Shown here in pieces: positions 9,745-16,497 of a stretch of DNA of 16,504 bases. This DNA is from a virus (Duplodnaviria; Heunggongvirae; Uroviricota; Caudoviricetes). The notes beneath the pieces were generated by a model. The model made no database searches, was not told the origin of the DNA, and was given only the letters and a program-made list of their open reading frames with translations. Within the stretch, counting starts at the first letter, position 1; every line of letters begins with the position of its first letter. The translations under genes were made by a program, and so were the position numbers. The stretch is from IMG/VR virus record IMGVR_UViG_2778261083_000002, one strand, 5' to 3'.

Positions 9745-10860
9745 TTAAATCCCTGCTTTTCTGAATACCTGTGCATCACGCTCACGGAGTTGCTTCAGCG
9801 TCAGCCATTCGCCTTTATCGGTGTAAAATTCATCTGGCGACATACCGCCATCCCGAATCAGCTTTGCCCGGGTTTCCCCCACAATCTGTTTTTGTCTGGT
9901 GTAAGGCTGACGCAAAAACCATTCCCTGTAGGTTGTATCTCCGGCCACCACGCCATCCATGCTGGCCCGCTCAGCCGGGGAAATATCACGAACATCAATA
10001 CCCAGTTCCTTCGCTGATTTCAGAATGAACGTTTCCGTTGAGCGGCAGCAGAAATGAATTTTTCCCGGCCCATGCAAATAAGGCACACTGTGACCTACAG
10101 GTTTATTATCCAGCGTATATTTGAGGCGATCCCTGATTCGACATTGTGGCGTAGTACGATTATCAAGCGTTGATAACCATTGCTTACCCTTAATCAAATC
10201 ATTATTCGCGCTGGCAAAACTCTCACGGGCAGTAGCAGCAAGATGTCCAACCGCTGTTTTTGCAATGCTGGCCGCATTAGCCCGGCTCATCTGCAATGCA
10301 CCATCCTGAAATCCCTTGCTGACATGTCCCCGAATTTTTCTTGCGATCTGCTCATTGGTATCCCCCAGCAAAAAACCCTGACGCACCGTATTTGTTATGC
10401 GTCTGAGCCGATCCGCCTCAAGATCCAAGGCCCACTCACTGAGCAGTCGTCCCTGGAATGGTCGCGCCATTGCAGCGGCGTAAAGTGCATCAGAAGATAT
10501 ACCAACCAGAGGGTGAACATCAGCAACAAAATCAGGTAGCAGAGAATCAAACAGACTTAACTGATAACCAGCCTCATAAATTGCCAGCTCGTTCAGCTCT
10601 CCGGAGAGACTGGTAAACATGCTGTTAATAGCAGCGCGGTTAACCTCTCTGACACTCGCCAGAAGTGACTCCAGGCGCGTAACGGTAAAACTACCAGGAT
10701 CGAGGCTGTCCAGTGCTACCAGCAGGCGAGCTGTAAGCTCCGCATCGCTGTCATTCAGTATTTTCACCATTCTGGCAGCCACACCAGTGCTATAGCGGGA
10801 TATCCAGACTGCATGAGCAATTGATTCATCACGCAGCCGTTCATTCACGGTTTGCATCAT
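9745..10860 (-). CDS. Phage head morphogenesis protein, Mu F-like / SPP1 gp7-like
   Basis: 371-aa ORF immediately downstream of the portal gene. The segment WLSTLDNRTTPQCRIRDRL...GKIHFCCRST resembles the conserved core of Mu F-like minor head proteins. Its start overlaps the portal 3' end by 20 nt. Confidence 0.7.
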   Translation of the reverse strand: MMQTVNERLRDESIAHAVWISRYSTGVAARMVKILNDSDAELTARLLVALDSLDPGSFTVTRLESLLASVREVNRAAINSMFTSLSGELNELAIYEAGYQLSLFDSLLPDFVADVHPLVGISSDALYAAAMARPFQGRLLSEWALDLEADRLRRITNTVRQGFLLGDTNEQIARKIRGHVSKGFQDGALQMSRANAASIAKTAVGHLAATARESFASANNDLIKGKQWLSTLDNRTTPQCRIRDRLKYTLDNKPVGHSVPYLHGPGKIHFCCRSTETFILKSAKELGIDVRDISPAERASMDGVVAGDTTYREWFLRQPYTRQKQIVGETRAKLIRDGGMSPDEFYTDKGEWLTLKQLRERDAQVFRKAGI

Positions 10861-12247
10861 TGATTTCCATCAACATTACACTCTGATTTTTTAATTCATC
10901 GATCACATCCTCTGGACGGGAATCCTGATCGATAAATTTCAACGCCTGCAACACCCGAACCGCATCAATCTGACGTATATCACCGCCCTGACGCAATGAC
11001 TGAACAGCCAGCGCGGAGGATGAGTCAAACACCTGGGCAGATACATCCAGTTCAGTGCGCACATCCACATTGCCACCGCAACTCTCTCCGCTCCATTCCG
11101 CCATTATCTGGAGAATATTATCGAGGGCATCTTCGAGGGAGTTCGCCATTGTATAAAGCGGCGAGTGTTCCTGCATCCGCTCTTCATTAGTCTGATCAAC
11201 AGATTTGGTGGATGTATTTTCAGCCCGCAGAAGTTTAGCGCCGGCATGACGCATCTGATTTTCCAGCTTCTCAAGTGATGTTTCGCCAGATTCTATCGCT
11301 GCGCCACTATGTTCAACATATTCGAGGCCATTTTTTGTTCTGTCCTCAAAAATCGTAGCCGTGGATGCACCAACCGTCAGTTCTTCATTCCTGTCCAGCC
11401 CGTAGGCCACCAGCAATGGAACGCGGGCAACATGAAGAATATTGTCCTGCTCGCTCTGGCTTTGCCAGTGCTTGATATTCAGCAAGCCAAGATTAAGCAA
11501 TGGCGGTGTACCACGCATAAACCCTGTTTTCTTCGTATACAGTGTTACCAGAGGAATATCATCACGGCTGGTATTCCATGACTCATGAAGCATCCAGACA
11601 GATTCGCCATTAGTACCTTCGCTGCGTCGATAAATTTCTACTCGACGGGGCATAATATGGCGGATCTGCTCCACCTTCTTCTGCCCGAAATCATCACCAT
11701 CAATAATGATGACCTCTTTTATACGCAAATCAGTGAGAACAACTTTCCCTTTTTCAACTTTCGATTTCCATCCAATAACCTGGCGTGGATTCAGCATCGT
11801 AACGTACGGGCGACCACCGGCCGCGTTTTCATCGGCTTTTGTCCGAATCTCGTTCATATCCGTTCGTGGATAGTCCACCAGCGCATGTGCCACACCATAC
11901 TGAAATGCGAGACTGAAAAATTGCTGCGCCCACACATCCAGTCGGCTCCCCTCCATGTCGATATTTTCTGCATATTCCCTGATTTTTTCCGGCGTTTCCT
12001 CACTCAATACTGTCGGCTCTGCAAATATGCGCCCAATATTTTGTTTGATGCTTTCTTCATACACAGGAAGTAACGTAGCCACAGACAGGCGTTTTTTATA
12101 AGCGTCTTCATCTTCATTAGGCCATTTGGGGAGATAATTTTCCCCCTGCCTGCGCATTTCAAGCGTACCGCCCATCAATGCGTCGTTAATATCCCACGCC
12201 TCCAGCATATCGTTATAGTCGAGGTTGGGTGTTGATATATCAGCCAT
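10841..12247 (-). CDS. Portal protein
   Basis: 468-aa ORF directly after the terminase large subunit (TAATTATG junction) and before the MuF-like gene, the canonical portal position. Size fits portal proteins. Family not identified. Confidence 0.8.
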   Translation of the reverse strand: MADISTPNLDYNDMLEAWDINDALMGGTLEMRRQGENYLPKWPNEDEDAYKKRLSVATLLPVYEESIKQNIGRIFAEPTVLSEETPEKIREYAENIDMEGSRLDVWAQQFFSLAFQYGVAHALVDYPRTDMNEIRTKADENAAGGRPYVTMLNPRQVIGWKSKVEKGKVVLTDLRIKEVIIIDGDDFGQKKVEQIRHIMPRRVEIYRRSEGTNGESVWMLHESWNTSRDDIPLVTLYTKKTGFMRGTPPLLNLGLLNIKHWQSQSEQDNILHVARVPLLVAYGLDRNEELTVGASTATIFEDRTKNGLEYVEHSGAAIESGETSLEKLENQMRHAGAKLLRAENTSTKSVDQTNEERMQEHSPLYTMANSLEDALDNILQIMAEWSGESCGGNVDVRTELDVSAQVFDSSSALAVQSLRQGGDIRQIDAVRVLQALKFIDQDSRPEDVIDELKNQSVMLMEINDANRE

Positions 12248-12249
12248 AA

Positions 12250-13551
12250 TTAAATCCGAAGTGATGTGACTCTTCCGGTCGGTTTGACAATAGGGAATTG
12301 CTTAACGATGAAATAACCTCCGGCATCATTCGGGTGATCATTGCCAGATTTTTTATCAGGCTCCCCCTTATCATCCCAGACCTGTTGCTCCAGAGATTCG
12401 GCATATACCGGACAACGCTTCACATTAACTTTATAGCGACGCTCACCATTGGCATTGCAGAACATTGCATTCATTGAGTTAACGCGATCTTTTACTGGCG
12501 GGTTCGAGCTGTTCACCACAACGTTAAAACCTGCCTGCTTAAGCTGGGCTATATCCGTCGTACTTGCGTTACTTGATTTTCTGGAATCTCCGGAAGCATC
12601 TGGATAAATATAAATCTCCCTCACTTTCCGGTAATCATGCCCGTCATACAGCCAGAAGCGTTCTTTAATGAGGCGGATCATATCCGGCGTATCGTAGGCA
12701 TTGATGATTTCAGTTACCGCACATGGAAGCCCCAAACGCAGCACATGGACGATTCCCGCCATCTTTCCAACGTTAAAATCCATCCCAATATAAATCGGCT
12801 CCCCTGGCTGCTCCACTTCTTCGCAATTATTCAGTTTCCGGTCAAACTGATGGTAAACAGTACCACTTGTCAGGTTAGTAAACCGTCCTAGAAGATAGGC
12901 TTTAATCAGCTCTGGAGGGTATGATTCAAGAAGTGAAGGAATGTAATCTGCTGGCAGGTTCTTTTCATTATCGAAAGTAGATGCCTGCACCAGACCATAC
13001 AGTGAGGCCAGCTCTGTTTTTTCACGCACGGCTTTAACAAACTGCTCGTAGACAAATTTGAATCCTTCCGGCGTGGTTGTAACGTCAATACCGTTGCGAA
13101 GTCCATCAATCTTATAACGCATACGCGCAATTATCTTGCGCCACGCCGTTCTGGCTTTTTCCTTCGGCAAAATGTCCAGTTCATCCACCAGCGCATTACC
13201 AATTTTGAAACCGACGATCGTTTGTGGCTTCTCCATCGATCTGCAGATAGTGGTTCCCCGATACTGGCGTCCGTAATAAAAGTGAACCTCTTTATTTCCC
13301 TCATTAATTTTTACGTTCAATCCCCAGTCAGCAGCAACTTCTTCCACTGTAGGGTAAAAAATATCGCGAATTTGGGGATACGTTGGCGCAAAATATCCCT
13401 GATTTATACCTGGATGCTCCCAAATCCCCTTGCATATGCCGCCACACCCAACCCATGTTTTGCCCGAGCCAAAACCAGCAATATAGGCTTTAAATTTATG
13501 GGGCATTGAAAGAAATCGCGCCTGAGGCACATTAAGCGTCGGAGAGATCAT
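12250..13551 (-). CDS. Terminase large subunit
   Basis: Walker A AGFGSGKT near the N-terminus, Walker B-like LVDELD, and a C-terminal nuclease-like region (IYIGMDFN). Preferred start is ATG 13551 (MISPTLNV...) with AAGGAG 8 nt upstream; the track start at 13560 is GTG. Overlaps the terS 3' end by 20 nt. Confidence 0.9.
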   Translation of the reverse strand: MISPTLNVPQARFLSMPHKFKAYIAGFGSGKTWVGCGGICKGIWEHPGINQGYFAPTYPQIRDIFYPTVEEVAADWGLNVKINEGNKEVHFYYGRQYRGTTICRSMEKPQTIVGFKIGNALVDELDILPKEKARTAWRKIIARMRYKIDGLRNGIDVTTTPEGFKFVYEQFVKAVREKTELASLYGLVQASTFDNEKNLPADYIPSLLESYPPELIKAYLLGRFTNLTSGTVYHQFDRKLNNCEEVEQPGEPIYIGMDFNVGKMAGIVHVLRLGLPCAVTEIINAYDTPDMIRLIKERFWLYDGHDYRKVREIYIYPDASGDSRKSSNASTTDIAQLKQAGFNVVVNSSNPPVKDRVNSMNAMFCNANGERRYKVNVKRCPVYAESLEQQVWDDKGEPDKKSGNDHPNDAGGYFIVKQFPIVKPTGRVTSLRI

Positions 13552-14626
13552 CTTCATCACTCCTTAATCTGGCATCAACCACATTAATATTGATCGCCAC
13601 AGGCTGGGGATGTTCATTATCCTCCACCGTTTCGATCTCTTTGCGCAGCTTCTGGTTCTCTATTCTGCGCCGTTCAATTTCCAGTTCCTGTAGCCGCTTA
13701 TCTGCACATAATGCCCCGCCAGCAGAAAGCAAACGCAACAATTCACGCCGGGCGGCAGCCTTATCCTCCAGCAGGATCTCAACACCGTATTTTCCGAGCT
13801 TTGACCCTGCATATAATTGCCGCGCATCCCCATCAAGCAGTGTGGTATCAGCCATATAAAGCTGTCCTGTTCCCTCACCGCAGCACTTCGGGCAATCAGG
13901 ATTGGGTATGGCGTTATCAACAAAGCCGAGGCCTCCATATTCCGGCTCGGGTTTACCATCTCTGGAGGCCTGTGCCGCAGCCTTATCGAATTCTGCAATA
14001 TCACGCCACTGGTAGAGATGATTCTCGCCCCAGCAATAACGGCAGTTAACACGGCGAAATTGTGCCAACTGATTGGGGTCGGCCTGGACAATGGCCATCA
14101 ACTGGCTCACCAGTAAATCCAGGTCTGCGGTATAGCGTTTCTGGTACTGATTGCGGAAGTAGCTGATAGCACGATAAACCCTGGCATTTCTAAGCATACG
14201 GCTGGCGTTGCTGTTAGCTGTCGCACCTTGCCCCTCATAACCAGCCAGTCGGTATGCCTCTGTCGGCTTTTTCCCCTGAGCAACCAACATGGCGAATTTT
14301 GCCTGCTGGTCAGAAATACCGAATTCATCGGGGCAGAACGAAATTTCTTCCGTGTCCCCCTCAATCAGGAGTGCATCGGATACAGCCTTTTTTTTCTGAG
14401 ATTTTCCGTTCTGCCTTTGCGCAGTCTGCGCAGTTTTTTTTCGCGCACTTTTTTGCGCAGTTTTGCGCATTTCTTTCTGCGCATTTTTCGGAGTTTTTTT
14501 GATGTAACGACGGGCTGTTGCGTAGTTCAGTCCCCTTGCTTCACACCATGCCACCGGAGATATACCGGAGCGGGTGTATTCAGCAATATACTCCTGCTGC
14601 AACGCCCCCCAGTCCGGTCTGCTCAT
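13532..14626 (-). CDS. Terminase small subunit, atypically long (364 aa)
   Basis: Central segment QQAKFAMLVAQGKKPTEAYRLAGYEGQGATANSNASRML resembles the HTH core of small terminase subunits. It is preceded by a second, similar HTH-like N-terminal segment (YIAEYTRSGISPVAWCEARGLNYATARRYI) and a Lys/Ala/Gln-rich linker, and followed by a Cys4 motif (CRYCWGE ... CPKCCGEG). Directly upstream of the large subunit. Confidence 0.8.
   Translation of the reverse strand: MSRPDWGALQQEYIAEYTRSGISPVAWCEARGLNYATARRYIKKTPKNAQKEMRKTAQKSARKKTAQTAQRQNGKSQKKKAVSDALLIEGDTEEISFCPDEFGISDQQAKFAMLVAQGKKPTEAYRLAGYEGQGATANSNASRMLRNARVYRAISYFRNQYQKRYTADLDLLVSQLMAIVQADPNQLAQFRRVNCRYCWGENHLYQWRDIAEFDKAAAQASRDGKPEPEYGGLGFVDNAIPNPDCPKCCGEGTGQLYMADTTLLDGDARQLYAGSKLGKYGVEILLEDKAAARRELLRLLSAGGALCADKRLQELEIERRRIENQKLRKEIETVEDNEHPQPVAININVVDARLRSDEDDLSDA
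14418..14483. repeat. Array of six TGCGCA-type palindromic hexamers separated by T/A homopolymer tracts, inside the terS 5' region
   Basis: TGCGCA at 14418, 14427, 14454, 14464 and 14478, plus CGCGCA at 14442. Spacings are 9-15 bp, with T7-T8 runs at 14390-14397, 14434-14441 and 14494-14500. Extended consensus is TYTGCGCAK. Confidence 0.7.
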
Positions 14627-14629
14627 CAG

Positions 14630-14881
14630 TTAGTCCTGATTTTTATCCACCCTGAGTAGTTCGCGCAGAGCAAAGGCATCCCCTTTTCTGGCAAGCTTAA
14701 ACAATGCCGCTCGTAACTCGGCTTCACCTTTCGCTCTGCCCTTACGGATGGCCGCATAAAAATCTGTCATTGCTTCCCGATTTTCTTTCAGTCGGTTCAG
14801 ATCAACATCCAGAACGTCAGCGATTTGTTGTGCAGTCATCCGGCACGCTGCCAGAGACTCGACTTTCGAATACGGAATCAT
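14630..14881 (-). CDS. Small HTH-like protein (about 69-83 aa), function unknown
   Basis: ORF immediately upstream of terS. The segment MTAQQIADVLDVDLNRLKENRE resembles the N-terminal HTH of lambda Nu1-type small terminase or excisionase-like proteins. Start is ambiguous (14881 or ATG 14839), and it overlaps the 3' end of the upstream gene in another frame. Confidence 0.55.
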   Translation of the reverse strand: MIPYSKVESLAACRMTAQQIADVLDVDLNRLKENREAMTDFYAAIRKGRAKGEAELRAALFKLARKGDAFALRELLRVDKNQD

Positions 14882-15749
14882 TTGTCACCCCCATTGATAT
14901 GCAGGGTGTCTTCTTCCTGTATTTTTCGTGAAGGATTTTTACTGCAGCGTTGTTCCAGGTGACCTGATGGTGAATGCGTTTATGGCTGGCACCCATCAGT
15001 GAGATTTTTACGCACGACGGCGAATACATGACGGAGTAAAAACTTTTAACGTAGGTTCCGGAATCCAGATACAGCTCGGTCATTCCGCCGCTGTTTTTCT
15101 GCGTCTGTTTCTGCCCTAACTGGACAGCACCGATCGTCATAAACAATTCACCACAGCGACCGAGATTCGTGTACGTATTCACATCCTCGTTAATGCGCCC
15201 CATGAATGAGAACGGTCGATCAACCGAACAGATAAAGCTGTTCATTGCCTTGCGTTTCACCCACGAAGCATGGCCGCCATTGTCACCAAGAAAATCCCCG
15301 CCCTGCGACATAGCGATGGAAAGCGCGGGTATTGATTCGTAATACGCCAGCATTTCAGAAAGGATCGCATCCAGTTTCCTTATCGGGAAATAGGCCTGGT
15401 CATAGTTGCGATCCACCCGAAACTGGAACTCGTGAAAATCATCATCGAGCTGAATGAAGTATTTACACCCGACCAGTTTTGCCAGGTCGAAACAGGCATT
15501 ACGGGCGTAAAAAATTGAGCGGCGATCACCAAAATTATCGGCTTCGTCAAAACGACTGGCAATATCGGCTTTGGAAAATACCAGCACCTGTTCACCAAAT
15601 TCAGCCATGTACTGATGCCGTGTCTTATCTTCATCATCAACAACGATAAAAATTTTCCCGGTATAGCCAGCACGACGCAACGTCCGGTAAGTCAGAACTT
15701 TGTCCGGTCGCCCGTGAGTCAGAATAAAGGCGCAAAAATCATCACGCAT
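14817..15749 (-). CDS. Putative GT-A-like (DxD motif) nucleotide-sugar transferase; function unknown
   Basis: About 310 aa. Contains beta-strand-like FCAFILTHGRPD, an acidic-ended strand KIFIVVDDED, and YFIQLDDDF (DxD) with spacing reminiscent of the GT-A fold. Preferred start is ATG 15749 (MRDDF...), preceded by GGAGGAGGAGGAA, and it overlaps the ParB-like stop (ATGCGTGA). The in-frame track start at 15773 is an alternative. Confidence 0.6.
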   Translation of the reverse strand: MRDDFCAFILTHGRPDKVLTYRTLRRAGYTGKIFIVVDDEDKTRHQYMAEFGEQVLVFSKADIASRFDEADNFGDRRSIFYARNACFDLAKLVGCKYFIQLDDDFHEFQFRVDRNYDQAYFPIRKLDAILSEMLAYYESIPALSIAMSQGGDFLGDNGGHASWVKRKAMNSFICSVDRPFSFMGRINEDVNTYTNLGRCGELFMTIGAVQLGQKQTQKNSGGMTELYLDSGTYVKSFYSVMYSPSCVKISLMGASHKRIHHQVTWNNAAVKILHEKYRKKTPCISMGVTNDSVFESRVSGSVPDDCTTNR

Positions 15750-16497
15750 ATTCCTCCTCCTCCTCCCCGCCATGCATGATCTCCACCATGCGCTGCGTCA
15801 TTCGGACAAATCCATTTTCAATAGCCTGCTGATAATCAATGATCACCAGCGCCGACTCCTCGAAAAGGCACTGAATTTCAGCGGGGGCATGAGCGTAATA
15901 GTCCGCAATTCTGCTGAAATTAAACACTGTGTGACGTTCTGCCGCACACAGGAGGAATTTCTCAATATCAGGATCAAGGGACGCCGAACGTATCCGGCTG
16001 ATCAGCTCCTGAGTTTTCGTATCGTCGTACAGTTCACTGATATCCGGTTTACCGCCCGACGGCTCATAAACAGGCGTATCAATTTTCGTCGTATACGGCT
16101 CCTCCTCATTTCCTGTACCGGGCAAAACATCCGTCAACAGTTCATCAATTTCTGTCGGGATGAAGCCTGTCAGGGAGACATCAAAATCAGCATTGATTAG
16201 GTCCGACAGCTCCATCCGCAACAGATCTTCATCCCAGCCAGCATTCATCGGCAGGCGATTATCTGCCAGGCGGTACGCCTTTTTCTGCTCATCCGTCAGG
16301 CCAGACAGAACAATGACCGGAACAGAATCCATTTTGAGCATTTCAGCCGCCATAACACGACCGTGACCCGCAATAATTTCGCCCTTTTCGTCAATCAGCA
16401 CCGGATTAGTCCAGCCGAATTGCTTAAGGAAGGTGCGAACAAGTTCCTGATATGAGATCATCATATTCATCCGGAGCGCATCCCAGAGGGACATCAT
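15742..16497 (-). CDS. ParB-like nuclease-domain protein; N-terminus may extend beyond the window end
   Basis: N-terminal segment PVLIDEKGEIIAGHGRVMAAEMLKMDSVPVIVLSGLTDEQKKAYRLADNR resembles the ParB/sulfiredoxin nuclease domain (GxxR box). Acidic C-terminal tail GGEEEEEYA. The frame is still open for the two codons between 16497 and the window edge. Confidence 0.7.
   Translation of the reverse strand: MMSLWDALRMNMMISYQELVRTFLKQFGWTNPVLIDEKGEIIAGHGRVMAAEMLKMDSVPVIVLSGLTDEQKKAYRLADNRLPMNAGWDEDLLRMELSDLINADFDVSLTGFIPTEIDELLTDVLPGTGNEEEPYTTKIDTPVYEPSGGKPDISELYDDTKTQELISRIRSASLDPDIEKFLLCAAERHTVFNFSRIADYYAHAPAEIQCLFEESALVIIDYQQAIENGFVRMTQRMVEIMHGGEEEEEYA

Follow-up and report, generated by a model that had tools for sequence, protein, structure and literature searches.

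Why should the 5' part of a small-terminase gene carry a dense row of copies of one short DNA word? The question is raised by a stretch of 16,504 nucleotides from a tailed phage (Caudoviricetes; IMG/VR record IMGVR_UViG_2778261083_000002), analysed over its whole length and referred to here as the window. In it, terS, which encodes the small terminase subunit TerS, holds five copies of TGCGCA and one degenerate copy within 66 bp. The explanation favoured here, with a probability of about 0.75 on sequence comparison, is that this array is the recognition part of the prophage's packaging-initiation (pac) site and is read by a helix-turn-helix (HTH) domain at the N-terminus of TerS. The array is present, it is conserved at the DNA level, and it is strictly coupled to the HTH and to a putative recognition helix within it.

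A motif count over the window places the six hexamers on 14418-14483, with starts 9, 15, 12, 10 and 14 bp apart (Table 1), in agreement with a sequence-only reading of the same DNA, which had described five TGCGCA and one CGCGCA in 66 bp at distances of 9-15 bp. That reading also treated all six as self-complementary; CGCGCA, which reads TGCGCG on the coding strand, is not. The array corresponds to terS nt 144-209, codons 48-70, encoding the peptide NAQKEMRKTAQKSARKKTAQTAQ, and is antisense on the + strand. The perfect hexamers lie in codon phases 2, 1, 2, 2 and 2, mixed as had been claimed. In the remaining 16.4 kb of the window there are five further TGCGCA copies. First-order Markov simulations of the window (n=3000) produced at most three TGCGCA per 66 bp against the five observed (0/3000). 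When the peptide was fixed and codons were resampled from window usage, five or more copies arose in 2/200000 trials, and permutation of synonymous codons within terS never reached the observed count (0/20000). The same permutation gave 0/20000 at three other loci (L004, L015 and L017) and 1/20000 in phage P1. The enrichment over the window count and over codon usage, which the sequence-only reading had proposed as a check, is therefore present, and the simulation and permutation results exclude chance or codon usage as the cause of the array. These tests leave a recent tandem duplication possible, and Tandem Repeats Finder reports periods of 10, 12, 24 and 36 with 75-100% matches at the array; the comparison with relatives is therefore decisive.

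The surroundings of the hexamers are less distinctive. Runs of four to eight A on the coding strand occupy gene nt 127-133, 139-143, 163-166, 173-178, 186-193, 222-225 and 232-239, and their spacing of ~12 bp is codon-periodic rather than helical. AAA accounts for 12 of 13 Lys codons, no significant excess over the 70% share that AAA has in the window as a whole; taken alone, the A-tracts therefore do not go beyond what the peptide needs. The interleaved A-tracts stressed by the earlier reading thus exist, but a special role for them is unsupported. No second cluster of hexamers with 0 or 1 mismatch was found in or around terS, and a consensus scan, which weak sites may escape, found no IHF site (WATCARNNNNTTR, ≤1 mismatch) within 300 nt of the array. 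A 17-nt inverted repeat (14332-14348 / 14399-14415) is absent from seven relatives and was treated as chance. The region also contains two in-frame slippery heptamers, A_AAA_AAA and A_AAA_AAG, at 14434-14441 and 14388-14396 (terS nt 186-193 and 231-239). A -1 shift at either would lead to a stop after 8-25 codons and yield a product of ~88 aa comprising the HTH and the linker.

Comparison with relatives shows that the hexamer outlasts the peptide it encodes. In Serratia, Superficieibacter and Buttiauxella, the genes of TerS homologues with 53-55% identity have 4-5 TGCGCA in the equivalent position, and Klebsiella and Aeromonas phages that share the N-terminal domain carry 6-7. Across homologues of 43-55% identity, IMG/VR contigs included, there are 4-8 copies, starting 0-14 nt past the HTH-coding segment. 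At 58 distinct loci the hexamers occur in all three codon phases (238/44/14), with spacings mostly of 9, 10, 12, 14 or 15 bp, and the extended site consensus is AAAAC-TGCGCA-AAA. The peptides over TGCGCA differ among relatives (SAQSEMRNAAQKELRT, TAQKTAQKKAAQ, MRNCAV; NAQK, MRN, LRT, CAV). Repetition at the level of the DNA, as the sequence-only reading had proposed, is borne out by this persistence in three phases over different peptides. In the Klebsiella group, extra hexamer copies at nt 348/360/386 give the array a bipartite, P1-like form.

The same conclusion follows from a codon alignment of 41 terS genes of the E. coli group. In the linker (codons 46-90), synonymous pair diversity is 0.004-0.105 and, for codons 46-75 taken separately, 0.004-0.068. 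The non-synonymous values of the linker are 0.10-0.38; outside it, synonymous diversity is mostly 0.1-0.33. The linker therefore combines a poorly conserved peptide with unusually conserved synonymous sites, the reverse of normal coding constraint. The terS 5' region occurs in 882/5426 complete E. coli genomes. Across terS, the window matches a Shigella flexneri chromosome with 100% identity; to induced E. coli siphophages with lambdoid, Rac-like genomes, its identity is ~96%.

The identity of the repeat follows the identity of the helix. A helix of the type ..TARRYIK is accompanied by TGCGCA in 59/59 distinct loci (4-8 copies), ..TAKRYIK, found in Yersinia, Pasteurella and others, by TGCGAA in 13/13 (3-9 copies), and NTARTRIKM, found in 933W and other Shiga toxin (Stx) phages, by (C/T)GATCAT in 16/16 (4-5 copies). 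Loci with ARRY contain no TGCGAA at all. Two clades, defined by at least 70% identity over residues 1-35, each hold two helix types with the matching repeat, which indicates that the motif switched within clades. An unbiased search of IMG/VR for TGCGCA triplets at short distance gave at least 120 loci. The HTH adjoins the array in 76 of the matches listed, and for 73 of these the first hexamer begins -2 to +14 nt from the end of the domain. Conversely, Terminase_2 cores with the CxxC motifs that lack the N-terminal domain (Moraxellaceae, Acinetobacter and a Pseudomonadota metagenome-assembled genome) have no array.

The TGCGAA lineages show the independence from the peptide most directly. TGCGAA lies over acidic (NCET) and basic (SANK) peptides alike, and some copies form a 12-bp palindrome, TGCGAATTCGCA. 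In the terS gene of Pasteurella phage Pmp11, TGCGAA encodes Cys-Glu in one phase but Ala-Asn in a second, which excludes selection at the peptide level in that phage. The Pmp11 gene (L018:1655-1805) carries nine TGCGAA in a bipartite arrangement, with groups of three and four around a perfect IHF consensus, AATCAAGAAATTA, at gene nt 206. Among the loci examined, none comes nearer to the way in which P1 pac is laid out.

Several further loci extend the range of arrangements. In Erwinia, Izhakiella and IMG/VR contigs (L007:564-900, L008, L101-L116), the TerS core is unchanged and a different N-terminal HTH (MSKPDEKAIERDFCAG...) precedes it; the array position is taken by 3-5 copies of GGGGCA(AA), behind which TGCCCC copies stand in inverted orientation. 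TGCGCA arrays also come after other TerS-like N-termini (L338, L355, L381 and L380). Together, the Erwinia-type and the L338/L380-like TerS suggest a general rule by which the sites adjoin the end of the domain that would read them. Four other IMG/VR contigs (L315, L350, L364 and L375) contain non-tandem clusters of 5-7 TGCGCA outside any long open reading frame (ORF), with no PacA-like HTH detected nearby, and these clusters may represent sites, pac-like or iteron-like, that belong to other elements or to satellites.

The domain that tracks the repeats is homologous to the N-terminus of a known packaging protein. A profile of 15 family members aligns with residues 3-41 of P1 PacA (hhalign probability 92.6%, E 4.7e-7, 39 columns); pairwise BLASTP by itself is not significant (E 0.11). 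The domain is joined to terminase cores of several unrelated types, in proteins of 236-374 aa. An AlphaFold model of TerS residues 1-60 has a pLDDT of 75 and helices at 6-20, 24-31 and 35-38. Scans of the domain with hidden Markov models found no curated Pfam or NCBIfam family and returned sub-threshold matches to transposase-type HTHs alone; a sequence search of solved structures with the N-terminal profile, TerS and TerL gave nothing significant; and an IMG/VR scan with P1 PacA returned near-identical P1-like elements alone. When the profile of the domain was searched against protein sequences, most of the matches were truncated ORFs. Many database ORFs of 44-80 aa consist of the N-terminal domain and end in the array region, some through frameshifts and some through insertions.

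Among characterised packaging sites, that of P1 offers the closest parallel. P1 pac is a 161-bp site with seven hexamers that is bound by pacase and regulated by Dam methylation. Its hexamers are required for packaging to be efficient, and synonymous recoding of them lowers the titre ~9-fold (PMC10028697). Both systems place the site in the 5' portion of the small-terminase gene, directly past the segment encoding the N-terminal HTH, and in both it is built from several 6-bp repeats that stand ~7-15 bp apart and do not share one codon phase. PacA and TerS have homologous N-terminal domains, and the synonymous-codon signature is alike. In the P1 record, four TGATCA begin at pacA nt 194, the IHF site and the pac cleavage positions fall at nt 256-284, and three or four more TGATCA/G follow at nt 324-380. 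There are also differences. The P1 hexamer is TGATCA/G, whereas TGCGCA holds no GATC, so the Dam methylation switch of P1 cannot apply here. P1 has two clusters (4 + 3) flanking the cut and an IHF site, in contrast to the single cluster of six in the window, which has no IHF consensus near it. Outside the shared domain, TerS has a Terminase_2 core that shows no detectable similarity to PacA, and TerL is of the Terminase_6 type. The site is carried by a lambdoid, Rac-like siphophage prophage rather than by a P1 plasmid prophage.

A second comparison is with the Stx phage 933W. Its TerS shares the N-terminal domain family (~40% identity) and has a repeat array at the equivalent place, but its helix is NTARTRIKM and its motif contains GATC, closer to P1; close relatives of 933W with an ARRY helix use TGCGCA. 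The 933W terS gene (L019:1501-1735; AF125520 28775-29009) and the loci L128-L166 carry their 4-5 (C/T)GATCAT with an exact 12-bp period over the peptide IDHEIDHKTDHEIDH. Every copy contains a Dam GATC, and one copy is the P1 hexamer TGATCA. Because of these features, packaging of Stx phages may start at the GATCAT array and may be Dam-sensitive. No characterisation of a pac site for 933W TerS was found in the literature.

SPP1 and P22 can also be compared. In SPP1 (pacL-pacC-pacR), TerS contacts several boxes that lie partly in the gene encoding it, and intrinsic bending of A-rich DNA has been implicated (reviewed in PMC9611059). The boxes of SPP1 stand on either side of the cut, the site extends in part upstream of gene 1, and there is neither a short hexamer array nor an extra tethered HTH; sequence-specific binding by the SPP1/SF6 TerS is weak in vitro (PMC9611059). 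P22 is a headful packager with pac inside its small-terminase gene, but that site is a single asymmetric 22-bp sequence without repeats, and the P22 TerS belongs to another family.

Assignment of the array to a pac site is supported because the array is conserved, covaries with the helix, is absent where the HTH is absent, and matches P1 in PacA homology and layout. The proposal of the sequence-only reading, a pac or terminase-recognition site inside terS, is thus favoured by four independent comparative tests. TerS would have two DNA-binding modules, the Terminase_2 core and an extra HTH tethered by a Lys-rich linker of ~50 residues, and the DNA encoding that linker would hold the 5-6 hexamer copies that the tethered HTH reads. 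Several HTHs of one TerS oligomer could then bind several hexamers at once and so mark phage concatemers. TerS on the array would position TerL to make the first cut close by. Headful packaging would probably follow in the direction in which terS is transcribed, towards lower coordinates of the window. Binding by TerS, the avidity of its oligomer, the position of the cut, the packaging direction and the headful mode are inferred from P1 homology, the shared layout and the type of TerL.

A number of points weigh against this interpretation. Literature searches found no mapping of virion ends for this phage or a close relative, and the single cluster without an IHF consensus, unlike the arrangement in P1, gives no landmark for the cut. 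The structure of TerS 1-60 is predicted with moderate confidence, and its Foldseek matches, mostly to HTH DNA-binding domains, are not significant (all E>1). Part of the covariation between helix and repeat may reflect co-inheritance of one DNA block, because the helix codons (nt 103-132) and the array adjoin, only ~10-40 nt apart. The four helix residues alone do not set specificity, as P1 PacA has ARRY and yet reads TGATCA. Phage records that start at the array, which would hint at mapped termini, were not seen among the records listed. The P1 kind of pac site is already known; no description was found of the TGCGCA variant, the pairing of helix and hexamer or the 933W-type repeats. A literature search, with subscription journals mostly outside its scope, returned nothing on TGCGCA together with terminase, on a 933W pac site or on pacA-like repeats. 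Three candidate sources were set aside: the report of a pac site within terS of LF82 'Gally' concerns an Sf6-type TerS, the Mecenats66 paper is unrelated, and a Yersinia phage paper is without packaging data.

Several other explanations were weighed. The array could be a TerS-binding operator, serving autoregulation of the late or packaging operon or another non-packaging role while packaging starts elsewhere. The coupling of HTH and hexamer shows that protein and site belong together and says nothing of the purpose of binding, and a site within the regulator's own gene is what many autoregulatory systems have. An operator of this kind is nonetheless unlikely, since the homologous arrangement in P1 has been proven to act in packaging, no promoter-like site was found in 14000-15200, and fusion of the domain to unrelated terminase cores fits a packaging-specificity module. 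Binding of the hexamers by another protein, either a host factor or the product of the 83-aa ORF at 14630-14881, which adjoins terS and partly matches phrog_309 (E 8e-23), is rather less probable still: that ORF is not upstream of terS in the array-bearing Klebsiella, Yersinia, Aeromonas, Pasteurella and 933W loci, and the TerS helix tracks the motif in every case. A neutral origin by slippage or tandem duplication in a low-complexity linker rich in Lys, Ala and Gln would account for the tandem periods, for the poor conservation of the linker peptide and for copy numbers of 4-8 among relatives. It is very improbable, given that between genera, at ~54% protein identity, the hexamer is kept in three codon phases while spacers and peptide change, that acidic NCET and basic SANK peptides share TGCGAA, and that the motif switches with the helix and vanishes without the HTH.

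Two further possibilities concern what the palindrome itself might do. As RNA, the array could form hairpins that modulate terS translation or act as antisense intrinsic terminators; the + strand has three sites with a hairpin and a T-run at 14417-14483, where 1.2 would be expected, and the folding z-scores are -3.4 for the sense and -2.4 for the antisense RNA. Such structure is a by-product, because repeated palindromes form hairpins automatically, and the Pmp11 TGCGAA array is equally enriched and yet has no excess structure (z = +1.5); together with the lack of any Rfam family match, this makes a role as RNA highly unlikely. TGCGCA is also a type II recognition sequence, and the sequence-only reading had drawn attention to the clustering of this FspI-type palindrome. 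A link with restriction-modification can be given almost no weight: sister lineages carry the non-palindromic TGCGAA in direct orientation, or GATCAT, and neither the window nor the related complete phage contains a methyltransferase or restriction gene.

Table 1. Features of the terS locus in window coordinates.
Feature	Position	Strand	Remarks
terS, small terminase subunit, 364 aa	13532..14626	-	Terminase_2, PHROG 51
N-terminal HTH domain coding region, aa 1-46	14489..14626	-	proposed reader of the hexamers; ends at gene nt 138
Putative recognition helix YATARRYIKK, aa 35-44	14495-14524	-	within the N-terminal HTH
Linker-coding region, aa ~45-95	14342..14494	-	holds array and A-runs; codon alignment
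Hexamer 1, TGCGCA	14478..14483	.	gene nt 144; codons AAT GCG CAG
Hexamer 2, TGCGCA	14464..14469	.	gene nt 158; codons ATG CGC AAA, phase unlike the others
Hexamer 3, TGCGCA	14454..14459	.	gene nt 168
Hexamer 4, degenerate TGCGCG (coding strand)	14442..14447	-	gene nt 180; perfect TGCGCA in most close relatives
Hexamer 5, TGCGCA	14427..14432	.	gene nt 195
Hexamer 6, TGCGCA	14418..14423	.	gene nt 204
terL, large terminase subunit	12250..13560	-	Terminase_6N E=3.5e-32, Terminase_6C E=7.8e-11
Portal protein, DUF4055	10841..12247	-	Pfam DUF4055 E=7e-45

The gene that carries the array encodes a small terminase. TerS matches Pfam Terminase_2 over aa 122-316 (E=1.2e-8; 36.1 bits, gathering cut-off 26.1) and PHROG 51 'terminase small subunit' (E=6e-75), and phage records of 95.7% identity as well as E. 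coli genomes label its product terminase small subunit. From the N-terminus, the protein comprises the PacA-like HTH, the Lys-rich linker and the Terminase_2 core with a CxxC...CxxC insertion. This insertion (NCRYCWGE ... NPDCPKCCGEG; window 13880-14060, TerS aa ~190-250) is zinc-ribbon-like and is kept in distant homologues from Acinetobacter and Moraxellaceae.

The genes beside terS (TerL, portal and MuF-like) form a packaging module. Downstream, terL overlaps the 3' end of terS and encodes a Terminase_6-type TerL, the presumed nuclease/ATPase partner of TerS that would make the cut close to the array, and is followed by the DUF4055 portal, a MuF-like protein and a P22-type coat protein. The relatives of this TerL are those of Kagunavirus- and Jersey-like siphophages, which have been reported as headful packagers. 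These relatives, the TerL type, the portal and the MuF-like protein are indirect evidence for headful packaging. The MuF-like head protein (window 9745-10860, - strand; Pfam Phage_Mu_F), labelled 'NAD+--asparagine ADP-ribosyltransferase' in a related phage record, may have a toxin-like C-terminal domain, as in some MuF proteins. On the other side, the 83-aa ORF (- strand; 69 aa in ON470614) ends 3 nt ahead of the terS start. Its match is to the middle of PHROG 309 'terminase small subunit', and it could be an accessory DNA-binding packaging protein. The second ORF upstream of terS (14817-15773, - strand) is TET-associated-glycosyltransferase-like (Pfam TAGT, E 1.7e-34; PHROG 842 'beta-glucosyl-HMC-alpha-glucosyltransferase'), and the annotation of the related complete phage lists neither a TET/JBP protein nor a cytosine methyltransferase. 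The third (15742-16497, - strand) encodes a ParB_N-like protein.

How small terminases select viral DNA is still called unclear and controversial, and most purified TerS bind pac DNA weakly and non-specifically (PMC9611059). Against this background, the terS HTH-hexamer family would offer a protein-site pairing that can be read from sequence and that has natural specificity switches. The architecture is widespread, in E. coli (882/5426 genomes) and also in 933W-type Stx phages with their GATC repeat. A broader view, to which slightly less than an even chance is given, is that the PacA-like HTH and the array in linker-coding DNA together form a portable packaging-specificity cassette with a readable helix-hexamer code; such a cassette may have been fused to unrelated TerS cores in lambdoid, Stx, P1-like, Klebsiella, Yersinia, Aeromonas and Pasteurella phages. 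If this is true, packaging specificity would be reprogrammable by small helix changes, and sequence would allow pac sites to be predicted for a large share of enterobacterial prophages, together with where lateral and generalised transduction begin and which way they run. For the present prophages, a known pac site and its orientation would predict the chromosomal flank that lateral transduction mobilises, and would supply a compact packaging signal of ~70 bp for phagemid design, in which P1 pac is already used (PMC10028697).

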